Part shown: one piece after another, positions 44,119 through 51,745 of the stretch
How positions within the stretch are numbered: the stretch's first letter is position 1
Layout: every line of letters begins with the position of its first letter
Assembly (NCBI RefSeq): GCF_003334305.1
Contig: NZ_QOWS01000005.1
From: Escherichia coli
Lineage (GTDB): Bacteria; Pseudomonadota; Gammaproteobacteria; Enterobacterales; Enterobacteriaceae
Length of the DNA stretch: 64,000 bases
Direction: 5' to 3' (one strand)
Program-made: the position numbers and the translations under genes
The notes under the pieces: generated by a model
What the model was told of the DNA's origin: nothing
The model's input: the letters and a program-made list of their open reading frames with translations, nothing else
Databases searched by the model: none

Positions 44119-45333
44119 TTACCCACCCGGAGCAACATTTTCCTTTAGCGAGTGATGCCGCGTTTTTTTGCGGCTGCGTAAGCCGATAAACAGTGCCAGT
44201 AAAAAACCGATGGCAGCGATGGCGGTATCGAACCACATAATATCGGCAATACTTCTTTGGGACAGATGAGCCGTAATCAACGGAATAGTAAAGGTCGCAA
44301 TACTGCCCGCACTGTAATAGATCCCTGTAGCTTTACCTTTAGCGTAAGGGAAACGTTCAGCCATTAACGTCAGGCCAATTTGCACAACACCTCCAGCAGA
44401 GGTAAAACCAATGACAAAAGCAAATATTATCACCACATAAAATGTGGGATGCAGGCAGACGGTAAACAGAGCAATAAATGAGATAAAGGTGTACAGCATC
44501 AGTAATGTTGTTGGGCGAACGGTATTACGAATGAGTGGAGCGGTAATAAATACACAAAGCAGCGAACCCACGGTGTAGATACTGAGTAGTTTAATCGACA
44601 TAGTGTATGACATGCCTGCAACAAATTGTCCGTACTGTGCCAGCCACTGGCTAACCAGATAAAACGTTGCCATTGAGATATAGCCATATAAGGTATAACT
44701 GGCTAAATCGATAATTGAACAGCGATGTTCCGTAGAGCTGGTGGTTTTCTTTATGACAGGTAAGCGATGACCCGGATGGGGTGGGAACGTACAACGGTAT
44801 AAAAACAGAGCGTTAATAAACATAATGCCTGCAGCAATCATAAAGGACCAACCGAACCACAGTTCAGCCCACACTAACAGGCTAATGATTAGCGGTAATA
44901 AAAATTGTCCGCTGGAAACAAATGCTTTAATTAAAATATTGGCTGTCCCAGGTGAGCGTGGAAAAGCTTCCATCAAACTGGGATAAGTGCCTGCATCGAG
45001 AAAACTGTTTGCCATTCCTGCCAGAAAGCCAAAAACATAAGCGATAATGATGTTATTGGTGTGCAGGATGCCAAAAAAGAAGGCCATATAGCAGCACATC
45101 CCGAGCATGATAAAAGGGCGGCGACCAAAGCGATCGGATAATAATCCTGCAAAAAGCAAGACACTTAATCGACCAATGCCCAGCGATGAGATAACTATCG
45201 AGACACCCGCGGCATTAGTCTGCCAAAGTGTCTCCAGCGAGGCCATATTCAGGCTCATCAAAATGACGCCCATACCATGCACCAGGTAATTAAAATACAA
45301 CCCAAGTGCGGTAGGGTAATAGGGATTTTTCAT
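44119..45333 (-). CDS. ydiM: MFS transporter
   Basis: 404-aa polytopic ORF recognised as YdiM. Confidence 0.88.
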   Translation of the reverse strand: MKNPYYPTALGLYFNYLVHGMGVILMSLNMASLETLWQTNAAGVSIVISSLGIGRLSVLLFAGLLSDRFGRRPFIMLGMCCYMAFFFGILHTNNIIIAYVFGFLAGMANSFLDAGTYPSLMEAFPRSPGTANILIKAFVSSGQFLLPLIISLLVWAELWFGWSFMIAAGIMFINALFLYRCTFPPHPGHRLPVIKKTTSSTEHRCSIIDLASYTLYGYISMATFYLVSQWLAQYGQFVAGMSYTMSIKLLSIYTVGSLLCVFITAPLIRNTVRPTTLLMLYTFISFIALFTVCLHPTFYVVIIFAFVIGFTSAGGVVQIGLTLMAERFPYAKGKATGIYYSAGSIATFTIPLITAHLSQRSIADIMWFDTAIAAIGFLLALFIGLRSRKKTRHHSLKENVAPGG

Positions 45334-45432: not shown

Positions 45433-45789
45433 TTAACAAAGCCGCTCCAGATCGTGTGCATATAATTCAGCGGCTACCGATTGATAGATCTTCCAGTCAA
45501 TAAAATTGCCATCAGGGTAGACTCGTTGAAATGCGGTTAAGTCGGGGAAAAAACGCATGGTGTTGTTGCCGATGCGGTTATTTATTTTCTCTATGATGGC
45601 ATGAAGATGTTTTTTTCTTTGCTGACGCATAGCCAACAGTTGCTCGACTACACGCTCAGGAATGGCACACTTGCCATTTTCCCACTGACGCCAGCTTTCA
45701 CTGTCACCGGTCTGGGCAATCCAGGTCGCGCATTCATCAATAGTCATGGCAAAAATATGGCGGAGTGCCTGGAGTTCATAAGCGTTCAT
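45433..45789 (-). CDS. ydiL: Uncharacterized protein YdiL
   Basis: 118-aa product from MNAYELQALRHIFAMTIDECATW...; the track ORF extends 9 codons upstream. Confidence 0.8.
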   Translation of the reverse strand: MNAYELQALRHIFAMTIDECATWIAQTGDSESWRQWENGKCAIPERVVEQLLAMRQQRKKHLHAIIEKINNRIGNNTMRFFPDLTAFQRVYPDGNFIDWKIYQSVAAELYAHDLERLC

Positions 45790-45927
45790 CGTGTAATGGC
45801 TGCATGAAATAAACAATAAAATATAAATAACATTATCAGCCTGCTGACGGCTTGAAGAGAGTCACAGTATCTTGTGCAACATTATTGGAAAGAGTGAGGG
45901 GCGAGGTAGCGAAGCGGAAAAATGTTA

Positions 45928-46032
45928 AAAAAAAGCCCATCGTGGGAGATGGGCAAAGACTACACACAGCAATTCGTTGTTTCACTCAGGGGATTTCCAT
46001 GCTTATAAATCAATATGTTGATTTATAACCGT
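45928..46032 (-). ncRNA. rprA: RprA small regulatory RNA (Hfq-dependent activator of rpoS translation, RcsB-controlled)
   Basis: Minus-strand read ACGGTTATAAATCAACATATTGATTTATAAGCATGGAAATCCCCTGAGTGAAACAACGAATTGCTGTGTGTAGTCTTTGCCCATCTCCCACGATGGGCTTTTTTT matches the recalled 105-nt RprA sequence exactly, including the 3' terminator hairpin and U-run; located between ydiL and ydiK as in K-12. Confidence 0.9.
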
Positions 46033-46217
46033 AAGCTAATAGTAGGCATACGGACTTTTTGCGTCGATCAGATTCGTCTCATTAGTTTAAAAACTGTAAA
46101 GAATTTGCGACAGGTACTACCAGCTGAATGGCGGTAAGCAGGAAAATATGGGGAAGAGCAAGCAAATATCAATTAGCGGGGGTTAACAATCAGGCGGCAG
46201 AGCCGCCTGATGAGAAA

Positions 46218-47330
46218 TTACTTATTCGGTTTCTCGATTTCGCCAAGTTCTTCGAGAATTTCTTCCGGTTGGTCCGTCGGCGGCGGGACTTCTTCCACCC
46301 ACGCGGCAAACAGACGCCAGGAAACGGCTAACAGAACCGGACCAATAAACAGACCGATCATCCCGAAAGCAATCAAACCACCAATAACACCAGAGAGGAT
46401 CAGGATCAGCGGTAAATCGGCACCCATGCGAATTAACATTGGGCGGATGACGTTATCCAGCGTGCCAACCACACCGCTCCACACTAACAATACCGTTCCC
46501 CAGGTGGTATCGCCGGTCCAGTAGAGCCAGATAATCGCCGGAATCAGTACCGGCAACGGGCCAAGCTGGACAAGGCAGGAAAGGATCATTAACACCGTTA
46601 GCAACGTTGCATAAGGTACGCCGGATACGGCGAGGCCGATACCGCCAAGCACTGCCTGTACTAACGCCGTCACCACCACACCCAGCGCCACCGCGCGGAT
46701 AGCCTGTGCCGCCAGCAGTACGGCGGCATCTCCGCGAACGCCTGCCAGACGGGTTGCAAAATGGCGAATGCCTTGTGCCACCTGTTCACCGCGCCAGTAC
46801 AGCAGGGCACTGAAGAGAAGCATCAGCGCACAATGCACCATAAAGCGCCCGATATGCGCCGCTTGCCCAACGAACCAGGTGGTGGTGGTGCCAATATAAG
46901 GGCGGACTTTCGCCATGATCGCAGTCCCCCCCATATCCAGCAAGTTGTGCCAGCCTGCATACAGCTTCGCGCCAATCACCGGAATGGTATTAAGCCACGC
47001 CAGATCGGGTAACGTCATGTCGCCGCTGGAAATGGCTTTAATTAGCGGGCCGCTGCCGTCGACGATACTGTTAACCAGCAAAGCAATAGGGATGATAAAC
47101 ACCATCACTAATAACAGCGTCATCACCAGAACGGCGAGAGAGCGGCGGCCAAACATGATCTTTTGCAAACGTAACAATACCGGCCAGGTGGCGATAACCA
47201 CCGTACCGGCCCATGCAAAGCCGAGAATAAAGGGTTGAACAATCCACAGACATGCCACAATCATGATGGCTAAAAACAGCACCGAAAGCAGAATTTGTGC
47301 GACATCCCTGGGCTGACGAACATTTACCAT
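46218..47330 (-). CDS. ydiK: AI-2E / UPF0118 family membrane transporter
   Basis: 370-aa polytopic ORF recognised as YdiK. Confidence 0.88.
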   Translation of the reverse strand: MVNVRQPRDVAQILLSVLFLAIMIVACLWIVQPFILGFAWAGTVVIATWPVLLRLQKIMFGRRSLAVLVMTLLLVMVFIIPIALLVNSIVDGSGPLIKAISSGDMTLPDLAWLNTIPVIGAKLYAGWHNLLDMGGTAIMAKVRPYIGTTTTWFVGQAAHIGRFMVHCALMLLFSALLYWRGEQVAQGIRHFATRLAGVRGDAAVLLAAQAIRAVALGVVVTALVQAVLGGIGLAVSGVPYATLLTVLMILSCLVQLGPLPVLIPAIIWLYWTGDTTWGTVLLVWSGVVGTLDNVIRPMLIRMGADLPLILILSGVIGGLIAFGMIGLFIGPVLLAVSWRLFAAWVEEVPPPTDQPEEILEELGEIEKPNK

Positions 47331-47718: not shown

Positions 47719-50700
47719 ATGATTCCACAGATTTCCCAGGCACCCGGCGTCGTTCAACTGGTGCTTAATTTTTTGCAAGAGCTGGAGCAACAAGGTTTTA
47801 CCGGCGATACGGCGACAAGTTATGCCGATCGTCTGACAATGTCGACCGACAACAGTATTTACCAACTTCTCCCCGATGCGGTGGTATTTCCGCGTTCAAC
47901 CGCAGATGTGGCGCTGATCGCCCGTCTTGCCGCGCAGGAACGCTATTCATCGCTGATCTTTACCCCCCGCGGCGGCGGCACCGGCACTAACGGTCAGGCG
48001 CTCAACCAGGGGATTATTGTTGATATGTCCCGCCATATGAACCGCATCATCGAAATTAACCCTGAAGAGGGCTGGGTGCGCGTTGAGGCCGGGGTGATAA
48101 AAGATCAACTCAATCAGTACCTGAAACCGTTCGGCTACTTTTTTGCGCCGGAACTTTCGACCAGCAACCGGGCAACGCTCGGTGGGATGATCAATACCGA
48201 TGCATCCGGTCAGGGATCGCTGGTCTATGGCAAAACGTCAGATCACGTACTTGGCGTACGCGCGGTGTTGTTGGGGGGCGATATTCTCGATACGCAACCT
48301 TTACCCGTCGAATTGGCGGAAACGCTGGGTAAATCCAATACCACAATCGGGCGAATTTATAACACGGTTTATCAACGTTGCCGTCAGCAACGCCAGTTAA
48401 TTATCGACAACTTCCCCAAACTTAACCGCTTTCTTACCGGTTACGATCTGCGTCATGTCTTTAACGATGAGATGACCGAGTTCGACCTGACGCGCATTCT
48501 GACGGGTTCAGAAGGGACGCTGGCCTTTATTACCGAAGCGCGGCTGGATATTACGCCCTTGCCTAAAGTGCGCCGTCTGGTGAACGTCAAATATGACTCT
48601 TTTGACTCCGCGCTGCGTAACGCGCCGTTTATGGTTGAGGCGCGGGCGCTTTCGGTAGAGACGGTGGACTCAAAAGTGCTGAATCTGGCGCGGGAAGATA
48701 TTGTCTGGCATTCCGTCAGCGAGTTGATTACCGATGTGCCTGACAAAGAGATGCTCGGGCTGAACATTGTGGAGTTTGCTGGTGATGATGAGGCGCTGAT
48801 TGACGAGCGAGTTAATGCTCTCTGTGTGCGGCTTGATGAGCTGATTGCCAGCCAACAGGCAGGTGTGATTGGCTGGCAGGTGTGCCGCGAGCTGGCGGGT
48901 GTTGAACGTATCTATGCGATGCGTAAAAAAGCCGTTGGTCTGCTTGGCAATGCCAAAGGTGCCGCTAAGCCAATTCCGTTTGCTGAGGATACCTGCGTAC
49001 CGCCGGAACATCTGGCGGATTATATTGCTGAATTTCGCGCGCTGCTCGACAGCCACGGCTTAAGCTACGGTATGTTCGGTCACGTCGACGCAGGTGTTTT
49101 GCACGTCCGTCCAGCGCTGGATATGTGCGATCCTCAACAAGAGATTTTGATGAAGCAAATCTCTGATGACGTGGTGGCGCTGACTGCGAAATACGGTGGT
49201 TTGTTGTGGGGCGAGCACGGCAAAGGTTTTCGCGCTGAATACAGCCCGGCGTTTTTCGGTGAGGAACTTTTTGCAGAACTGCGCAAAGTGAAAGCGGCAT
49301 TTGACCCGCATAACCGACTCAACCCAGGGAAGATTTGCCCGCCAGAAGGTCTCGATGCGCCGATGATGAAAGTGGACGCGGTGAAGCGCGGTACATTCGA
49401 TCGGCAGATCCCCATTGCGGTACGCCAGCAGTGGCGCGGTGCGATGGAGTGTAACGGCAACGGTTTATGCTTCAACTTTGATGCCCGTAGTCCGATGTGT
49501 CCGTCGATGAAGATCACCCAGAGCCGGATTCATTCACCGAAAGGGCGCGCAACGCTGGTGCGTGAATGGCTGCGTTTGTTGGCGGATCGCGGCGTTGATC
49601 CACTCAAACTGGAACAAGAACTGCCTGAATCCGGCGTCAGTTTGCGGACGTTAATTGCCCGCACGCGCAATAGCTGGCATGCGAATAAAGGCGAATATGA
49701 CTTCTCACACGAAGTCAAAGAGGCGATGTCGGGCTGTCTGGCCTGTAAAGCGTGTTCGACCCAGTGCCCCATCAAAATTGATGTGCCGGAGTTTCGCTCT
49801 CGTTTTCTGCAGCTCTATCACACCCGTTATTTACGCCCGCTGCGCGACCACCTCGTCGCTACGGTCGAGAGCTACGCGCCGCTGATGGCACGCGCGCCGA
49901 AAACCTTTAACTTCTTCATTAACCAGCCGCTGGTGCGCAAACTCTCGGAAAAACATATCGGCATGGTTGATTTGCCACTGCTGTCGGTCCCCTCGCTACA
50001 ACAACAAATGGTGGGGCATCGCTCGGCAAACATGACGCTGGAACAGCTTGAAGCTCTCAATGCAGAGCAGAAAGCGCGCACGGTGTTGGTGGTGCAGGAC
50101 CCCTTTACCAGCTATTACGATGCGCAAGTGGTGGCGGATTTTGTCCGTCTGGTTGAAAAATTAGGTTTCCAGCCGGTGTTACTGCCATTTTCGCCAAATG
50201 GCAAAGCCCAGCATATTAAAGGTTTTCTTAATCGTTTTGCGAAGACGGCGAAAAAGACGGCGGATTTCCTCAACCGTATGGCGAAGCTGGGGATGCCAAT
50301 GGTGGGCGTCGATCCGGCGCTGGTACTTTGTTATCGCGATGAATATAAACTGGCGCTGGGCGAGGAACGTGGCGAGTTTAACGTCTTACTGGCGAATGAA
50401 TGGCTGGCAAGCGCACTTGAGTCACAGCCAGTGGCTACAGTCAGCGGTGAATCATGGTATTTCTTTGGTCACTGTACCGAGGTTACCGCCTTGCCGGGCG
50501 CGCCAGCACAATGGGCCGCGATATTTGCCCGTTTTGGCGCGAAACTGGAAAATGTCAGCGTGGGTTGCTGCGGCATGGCAGGGACTTACGGACATGAAGA
50601 GAAAAACCATAAAAATTCGCTCGGGATCTATGAGTTATCCTGGCATCAGGCTATGCAGCGACTGCCGCGTAACCGCTGTCTGGCGACCGGATATTCCTGC

Positions 50701-50775
50701 CGTAGCCAGGTCAAACGGGTTGAAGGCACGGGGGTACGCCATCCTGTGCAGGCTTTACTGGAGATTATTAAATGA
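47719..50775 (+). CDS. ydiJ: FAD-linked oxidoreductase with Fe-S/CCG domains (D-2-hydroxyglutarate dehydrogenase-like)
   Basis: 1018-aa ORF recognised as YdiJ. Confidence 0.9.
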   Translation: MIPQISQAPGVVQLVLNFLQELEQQGFTGDTATSYADRLTMSTDNSIYQLLPDAVVFPRSTADVALIARLAAQERYSSLIFTPRGGGTGTNGQALNQGIIVDMSRHMNRIIEINPEEGWVRVEAGVIKDQLNQYLKPFGYFFAPELSTSNRATLGGMINTDASGQGSLVYGKTSDHVLGVRAVLLGGDILDTQPLPVELAETLGKSNTTIGRIYNTVYQRCRQQRQLIIDNFPKLNRFLTGYDLRHVFNDEMTEFDLTRILTGSEGTLAFITEARLDITPLPKVRRLVNVKYDSFDSALRNAPFMVEARALSVETVDSKVLNLAREDIVWHSVSELITDVPDKEMLGLNIVEFAGDDEALIDERVNALCVRLDELIASQQAGVIGWQVCRELAGVERIYAMRKKAVGLLGNAKGAAKPIPFAEDTCVPPEHLADYIAEFRALLDSHGLSYGMFGHVDAGVLHVRPALDMCDPQQEILMKQISDDVVALTAKYGGLLWGEHGKGFRAEYSPAFFGEELFAELRKVKAAFDPHNRLNPGKICPPEGLDAPMMKVDAVKRGTFDRQIPIAVRQQWRGAMECNGNGLCFNFDARSPMCPSMKITQSRIHSPKGRATLVREWLRLLADRGVDPLKLEQELPESGVSLRTLIARTRNSWHANKGEYDFSHEVKEAMSGCLACKACSTQCPIKIDVPEFRSRFLQLYHTRYLRPLRDHLVATVESYAPLMARAPKTFNFFINQPLVRKLSEKHIGMVDLPLLSVPSLQQQMVGHRSANMTLEQLEALNAEQKARTVLVVQDPFTSYYDAQVVADFVRLVEKLGFQPVLLPFSPNGKAQHIKGFLNRFAKTAKKTADFLNRMAKLGMPMVGVDPALVLCYRDEYKLALGEERGEFNVLLANEWLASALESQPVATVSGESWYFFGHCTEVTALPGAPAQWAAIFARFGAKLENVSVGCCGMAGTYGHEEKNHKNSLGIYELSWHQAMQRLPRNRCLATGYSCRSQVKRVEGTGVRHPVQALLEIIK

Positions 50776-51470: not shown

Positions 51471-51639
51471 TCCTGACTTAATGCCGCAAGTTCGCCAAAT
51501 CGACCTGGATTAACCTCCGTCCAGGTTCGATGACCTTCTTAATACTGCTTATCTACCGCCTGATATTGTTCAAAAATAATACTAATCGCAGTTTGTGTTA
51601 AAACGGCGGGTTAGCTTTATGAGATTATTCTTATCGCCC

Positions 51640-51745
51640 CTTCAAGAGCTAAGCCACTGAGAGTGCCGGAGATAAGCGCCGGATGGGGTAGAAACCCTTA
51701 AGCCTGTGTTGCACAGACTTAAGGGTTTTCTTATTTCTGAACGCT
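51640..51745 (+). ncRNA. Candidate small RNA with intrinsic terminator in the ydiH-sufA intergenic region (possibly RydB)
   Basis: Strong hairpin aaacccttaag-cctgtgttgcacaga-cttaagggttt followed by tcttatttct on the plus strand, in a 550-bp non-coding gap; I recall an sRNA (rydB) mapping between ydiH and sufA in K-12 but cannot recall its sequence. Confidence 0.35.

Follow-up and report, generated by a model that had tools for sequence, protein, structure and literature searches.

The gap between ydiK and ydiL in the window (the whole stretch of 64,000 nucleotides of Escherichia coli DNA analyzed here) is shown as empty by an ORF-based track, though a functional regulator sits there. The minus strand from 46032 down to 45928, read from the sequence, is ACGGTTATAAATCAACATATTGATTTATAAGCATGGAAATCCCCTGAGTGAAACAACGAATTGCTGTGTGTAGTCTTTGCCCATCTCCCACGATGGGCTTTTTTT, with the A at 46032 as the transcription start (+1). 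The preliminary description of this DNA had named the lack of an Rfam RprA match at these coordinates as grounds for abandoning the assignment. A scan of the whole window with Rfam 15 identified RF00034 (RprA) at 45925–46032 on the minus strand with a score of 118.5 bits, compared with a gathering score of 70 (E = 1.6e-16), and the match covers model positions 1–108 of 108 without truncation. In an alignment with the K-12 MG1655 genome the RNA is 100% identical, at all bases, to rprA (b4431; NC_000913.3, 1770372–1770477), which is annotated there as "small regulatory RNA RprA". The earlier claim that the minus strand carries the 105-nt RprA sequence base for base is thus borne out at each position. 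The 3' end varies by convention, lying at 45928 for the 105-nt RNA, at 45927 for the 106-nt RefSeq annotation of K-12, and at 45925 for the 108-nt form of Rfam and PGAP. The features of the locus are collected in Table 1.

Table 1. Genes, RNA features and predicted promoter elements at the rprA locus. Promoter positions are relative to +1 and RNA positions are numbered from the 5' end.
Feature	Position or sequence	Coordinates in the window	Strand	Basis
ydiM		44119–45333	minus	ORF list, E2865 gene order
ydiL	downstream of rprA	45433–45789	minus	ORF list, E2865 gene order
Intrinsic terminator		45927–45954	minus	terminator scan, compensatory changes
RprA sRNA	105 nt	45928–46032	minus	Rfam match, K-12 identity, E. 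coli annotation
Highly conserved core	AATTGCTGTGTGTAGTCTTTGCC, nt 59–81	45952–45974	minus	exact 23-mer in at least 120 Enterobacterales stretches
Predicted rpoS-complementary single-stranded middle	nt 40–62	45971–45993	minus	predicted duplex with K-12 leader
5' stem-loop, A/U-rich	nt 3–32	46001–46030	minus	minimum-free-energy and centroid folds, compensatory changes
Predicted -10	TACTAT, -12 to -7	46039–46044	minus	sequence, conservation
Predicted -35-like, adjoining RcsB box	TCGACG, -35 to -30	46062–46067	minus	sequence, conservation
Predicted RcsB box	TGAGACGAATCTGA, -49 to -36	46068–46081	minus	exact consensus match, crystallised-site identity
ydiK	upstream of rprA	46218–47330	minus	ORF list, E2865 gene order
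ydiJ		47719–50775	plus	ORF list, E2865 gene order

The locus is nearly universal in the species. Using megablast, we found the 451-bp region 45800–46250 in 5424 of 5426 complete E. coli genomes, with an identity of at least 99% in 4,519 records. All of the matches listed carry the annotation "rprA: antisense sRNA RprA" together with ydiK, and the gene is, as had been stated, not novel. Strain E2865 matches the query at 100% identity and has the order ydiJ (on the opposite strand), ydiK, rprA, ydiL, and ydiM. This order corresponds exactly to the ORFs of the window, and ydiK and ydiL do flank the RNA as described, upstream and downstream respectively and both on the minus strand.

The RNA in the window is the same as RprA (RF00034; b4431), and its site downstream of ydiK, terminator, RcsB box, -10 and -35 are also the same. 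DsrA, ArcZ, and RprA are Hfq-dependent sRNAs that all raise RpoS (PMC3465796, PMC3937726). However, DsrA and ArcZ are unrelated to RprA in sequence, are encoded elsewhere, and answer to different signals, and the Rfam scan found neither of them within the window. We have hardly any doubt that 45928–46032 on the minus strand is E. coli rprA itself, equipped with its own RcsB-dependent sigma-70 promoter and encoding the rpoS-activating sRNA, and no observation speaks against this. It is an already known and well-studied gene at its usual E. coli location, and it represents no new biology.

The Rfam scan identified several further RNA elements in the window. A Phe_leader (RF01859), the phenylalanine attenuator leader with its terminator, is present at 17127–17251 on the plus strand (75 bits compared with a gathering score of 55). 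STnc540 (RF02082) matches at 21092–21250 on the plus strand with 67.4 bits compared with 38; this match, in which a large internal part of the 202-nt model is deleted, takes in a strong terminator hairpin. In addition, the sRNA rydB (RF00118) is found at full length at 51636–51696 on the plus strand (81.6 bits compared with 50), and is another RNA gene beyond the reach of an ORF track.

Structure of the RNA and its conservation among relatives

Folded alone, the 105-nt RNA consists of a long A/U-rich 5' hairpin (nt 3–32), a mostly open middle, and a terminator hairpin (nt 79–98). The minimum free energy is -25.8 kcal/mol (z = -2.26 relative to dinucleotide shuffles), and both hairpins are seen in the minimum-free-energy fold and in the centroid fold. 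The terminator is a 7-bp stem, GCCCATC/GATGGGC, with a 6-nt loop (45935–45954), followed by T8 (45927–45934). A terminal hairpin and a U-run had been described previously, and both are present; the hairpin quoted at that time, CCCATCTCCCACGATGGG, occupies 45935–45954 together with its closing G-C pair and directly precedes the eight T residues. A terminator hairpin with a U tail is typical of Hfq-binding sRNAs. The hairpin at 45935–45954 is the sole terminator-like site called by the terminator scan in 45700–46300.

A separate G+C-rich hairpin with a 9-bp stem, TCAGGCGGC-TCT-GCCGCCTGA, is found at 46190–46210 on the minus strand and starts 8 nt past the ydiK stop codon. It has no T-run and was not called by the terminator scan. 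This hairpin may be the 3' end of ydiK or may stabilize the mRNA.

We collected homologues by exact match to the 23-nt core AATTGCTGTGTGTAGTCTTTGCC (nt 59–81), using one genome per species. At least 120 stretches of Enterobacterales DNA contain the exact core 23-mer. The genera among the matches listed are Escherichia, Citrobacter, Enterobacter, Pantoea, Erwinia, Serratia, Yersinia, Dickeya, Pectobacterium, Hafnia, and Providencia. The invariance of nt 59–81 is by construction, as the loci were picked on that 23-mer, and more divergent homologues lie outside the sample. The small hairpin inside the core (helix 6) is likewise invariant by selection, and the collection is uninformative on that helix.

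From the matches listed, 101 distinct homologues were aligned with the window using MAFFT, giving 102 sequences. Pairs were counted by projecting the window's own fold on this alignment, a procedure that somewhat favors the window's structure; by this count 86.5% of cells are paired over the whole structure, compared with 38–43% when the partner is slid. All five whole-structure measures beat 500 of 500 shuffles as well as every slid control. The terminator stem shows pairing in 99.9% of cells among the 102 sequences, and three of its seven pairs change on both sides (e.g. C-G to U-A). The main 5' helix is paired in 78.8% of cells, and five of its seven pairs have changes on both sides. RNAalifold, applied to the same 102-sequence alignment, gave only the terminator and the invariant small hairpin. 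The 5' hairpin was counted by projection because RNAalifold missed the 5' part, which is poorly aligned across distant genera. The RNAs of Providencia, Yersinia, and Serratia have a longer 5' part that cannot be aligned, whereas their nt 59–81 and terminator are nearly fixed.

The region could also encode a small protein instead of, or in addition to, the RNA, as two ORFs overlap it: one of 49 amino acids with a GTG start (45836–45985, minus strand) and one of 58 amino acids with a TTG start (45852–46028, plus strand). However, the minus-strand ORF runs through the terminator loop and the T-run, and among related species both the loop (TCCC, T-CA, AGCCC) and the T-run (T7 to T10) vary in length by non-multiples of three. 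Conservation past the terminator was not seen in the alignment of related species, and conservation within the RNA tracks the paired stems and the 23-nt core (which is invariant by locus selection) rather than codon positions. The E. coli annotations examined contain no CDS here. Based on the length steps in the terminator, the stem-based conservation and the lack of an annotated CDS, we rejected the coding reading of these ORFs, and we give a small protein next to no chance of being the correct description of the locus.

An RNA gene, as opposed to a coding region, is thus the reading we retain, and its neighborhood differs in depth of conservation on the two sides. Among the matches listed, 109 of 120 Enterobacterales loci have a ydiK homologue upstream on the same strand, whereas ydiL follows rprA in only 8 of these 120. 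Therefore the "ydiK-ydiL gap" is an Escherichia-level description, and the stable partner of rprA is ydiK. Judging from gene order, ydiL is a recent and narrow neighbor. The annotation of ydiK is AI-2E family transporter. Because rprA and ydiK remain same-strand neighbors across the Enterobacterales, rprA might be functionally coupled to ydiK, for example if read-through from ydiK fed RprA or if RprA acted on ydiK-related physiology. We consider such a coupling quite improbable.

The predicted promoter and its RcsB box

The predicted promoter consists of a -10 hexamer and a -35-like hexamer separated by a 17-nt spacer, with a putative RcsB box adjoining the latter. The RcsB-box consensus obtained from crystal structures of RcsB bound to DNA is TN(G/A)GAN4TC(T/C)NA (PMC7913699). 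With positions counted from the A at 46032, the consensus matches once in the predicted promoter region, at 46068–46081, and this candidate box falls within the interval of about 46033–46100 to which the promoter and RcsB box had been assigned. The consensus is not rare, with 4 matches in the window compared with 2.8 expected by chance. However, we consider the box at 46068–46081 meaningful because it is identical to a crystallized box and is conserved across related loci. The Salmonella PrprA oligonucleotide (-33 to -53, CTATTGAGACGAATCTGATCG) has been co-crystallized with RcsB; the 14-nt box of the window is identical to the box in this oligonucleotide, and the numbering agrees (PMC7913699).

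Of the 115 related loci among the matches listed whose flanks are long enough, 114 have a box no more than 190 nt upstream of the core. In 64 related loci among the matches listed the box starts 107 or 108 nt upstream of the core, and the window's own distance is 107 nt. The box sequences within the consensus across related loci include TGAGACGAATCTGA, TAAGAGGATTCTTA, and TAGGATGATTCTTA, among others. We also compared 109 distinct promoters among the matches listed, anchoring the comparison on the RcsB box. The GAC at -33 to -31, which forms the center of the -35-like hexamer, is kept in 103–108 of these 109 promoters and TAnTAT at -12 to -7 is kept in 77–102, depending on the position. The spacer between them is little conserved in the same set.

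Transcription of rprA is considered strictly RcsB-dependent (PMC6298664). The predicted layout is that expected for an activator bound beside a weak -35. A generic sigma-70 promoter scan did not call the rprA promoter, and we attribute this to the weak -35, as would be expected with an activator-dependent promoter. The rprA promoter was instead recognized by its RcsB box, its spacing, and its conservation across species. The only call made by the scan is a TTGATA/CATATT pair at 46172–46143, approximately 110 nt from the RNA start, and we rejected it as the rprA promoter.

The RcsB-box consensus is also matched perfectly by TGAGATTATTCTTA at 51620–51633, which stops 2 nt short of the 5' end given by Rfam for rydB. 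This match may be a coincidence, given the approximately 2.8 chance matches per window and a position that is not beside a -35.

Within the 451-bp region there are only two differences from K-12 MG1655, and both are in flanking sequence. One is a T for C at 46033 (-1), and the other is a C for A at 46180, approximately 150 nt upstream of the rprA start. Both the T at 46033 and the C at 46180 are common to many other E. coli strains. As the first substitution lies at -1 of the start, the copy in the window could in principle be decayed or silent, with a promoter that is dead in this strain. However, the RcsB box, the -35, the -10, the entire RNA, and the terminator are all intact and the same as in K-12, and many unrelated E. 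coli isolates carry the exact 451 bp, T at -1 included, at 100% identity. Position -1 is also variable in functional-looking promoters of other species (C in 71, T in 19, A in 14, and G in 5 of the 109 among the matches listed). A decayed copy is therefore most improbable, and the data are in keeping with an intact rprA gene.

Predicted pairing with the rpoS leader and proposed mechanism

RprA is a 105-nt RNA that involves Hfq and opens the rpoS leader by an anti-antisense mechanism (PMC3465796). It relieves an inhibitory pairing in the leader and thereby raises RpoS (PMC3465796). In addition, csgD and ydaM are direct targets of repression by RprA, and the 3' fragment RprA60–105 is reported to suffice for repressing csgD (PMC3465796). 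The conserved core at nt 59–81 falls inside this fragment.

Because rpoS lies outside the window, we used the rpoS leader of K-12. In its own predicted fold, -107 to -94 of the leader pairs with -18 to -1, beside the start codon. A search with full-length RprA and a 200-nt leader using RNAduplex gave a meaningless duplex over the whole molecule, and for this reason the search was narrowed to the single-stranded core. The best duplex between RprA core nt 32–77 and the 567-nt K-12 leader falls on -135 to -93, overlapping the arm that pairs with -18 to -1 and masks the ribosome-binding site. It contains an exact 8-nt word, with AACGAAUU of RprA (nt 55–62) opposite AAUUCGUU of the leader (-117 to -110), and UCCCCU (nt 40–45) opposite AGGGGA (-106 to -101). 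The duplex has an energy of -32.4 kcal/mol, which is not significant, as 96 of 1000 shuffled cores match it. The predicted pairing is located where the mechanism would require it, at an energy that lends it no statistical support.

The identity, boundaries, structure, promoter elements, and conservation described here come from our own analysis of the window. The dependence on RcsB, the involvement of Hfq, and the regulation of rpoS, csgD, and ydaM come from published studies of the identical RNA. Together they suggest the following course of events. The Rcs phosphorelay would sense envelope stress, and a dimer of RcsB would then occupy the box at -49 to -36 and turn on a sigma-70 promoter with a weak -35. 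Transcription would stop at the intrinsic terminator at 45927–45954, yielding a 105-nt RNA in which an A/U-rich 5' hairpin is followed by a single-stranded middle and, at the 3' end, by the terminator hairpin and its U tail. The single-stranded region would pair with the rpoS leader hairpin on its upstream arm, at about -117 to -101 from the AUG. This pairing would free the ribosome-binding site and lead to more translation of RpoS ("anti-antisense" activation). The single-stranded region and the conserved 3' core would also pair with the csgD and ydaM (dgcM) mRNAs, resulting in their repression.

Genes of this kind are cleanly recovered by a covariance-model scan, and the present result matters as annotation only. 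The gene that it restores to the map links envelope stress, through Rcs, to RpoS, the sigma factor of the general stress response, and, through csgD and ydaM, to the control of biofilm formation.
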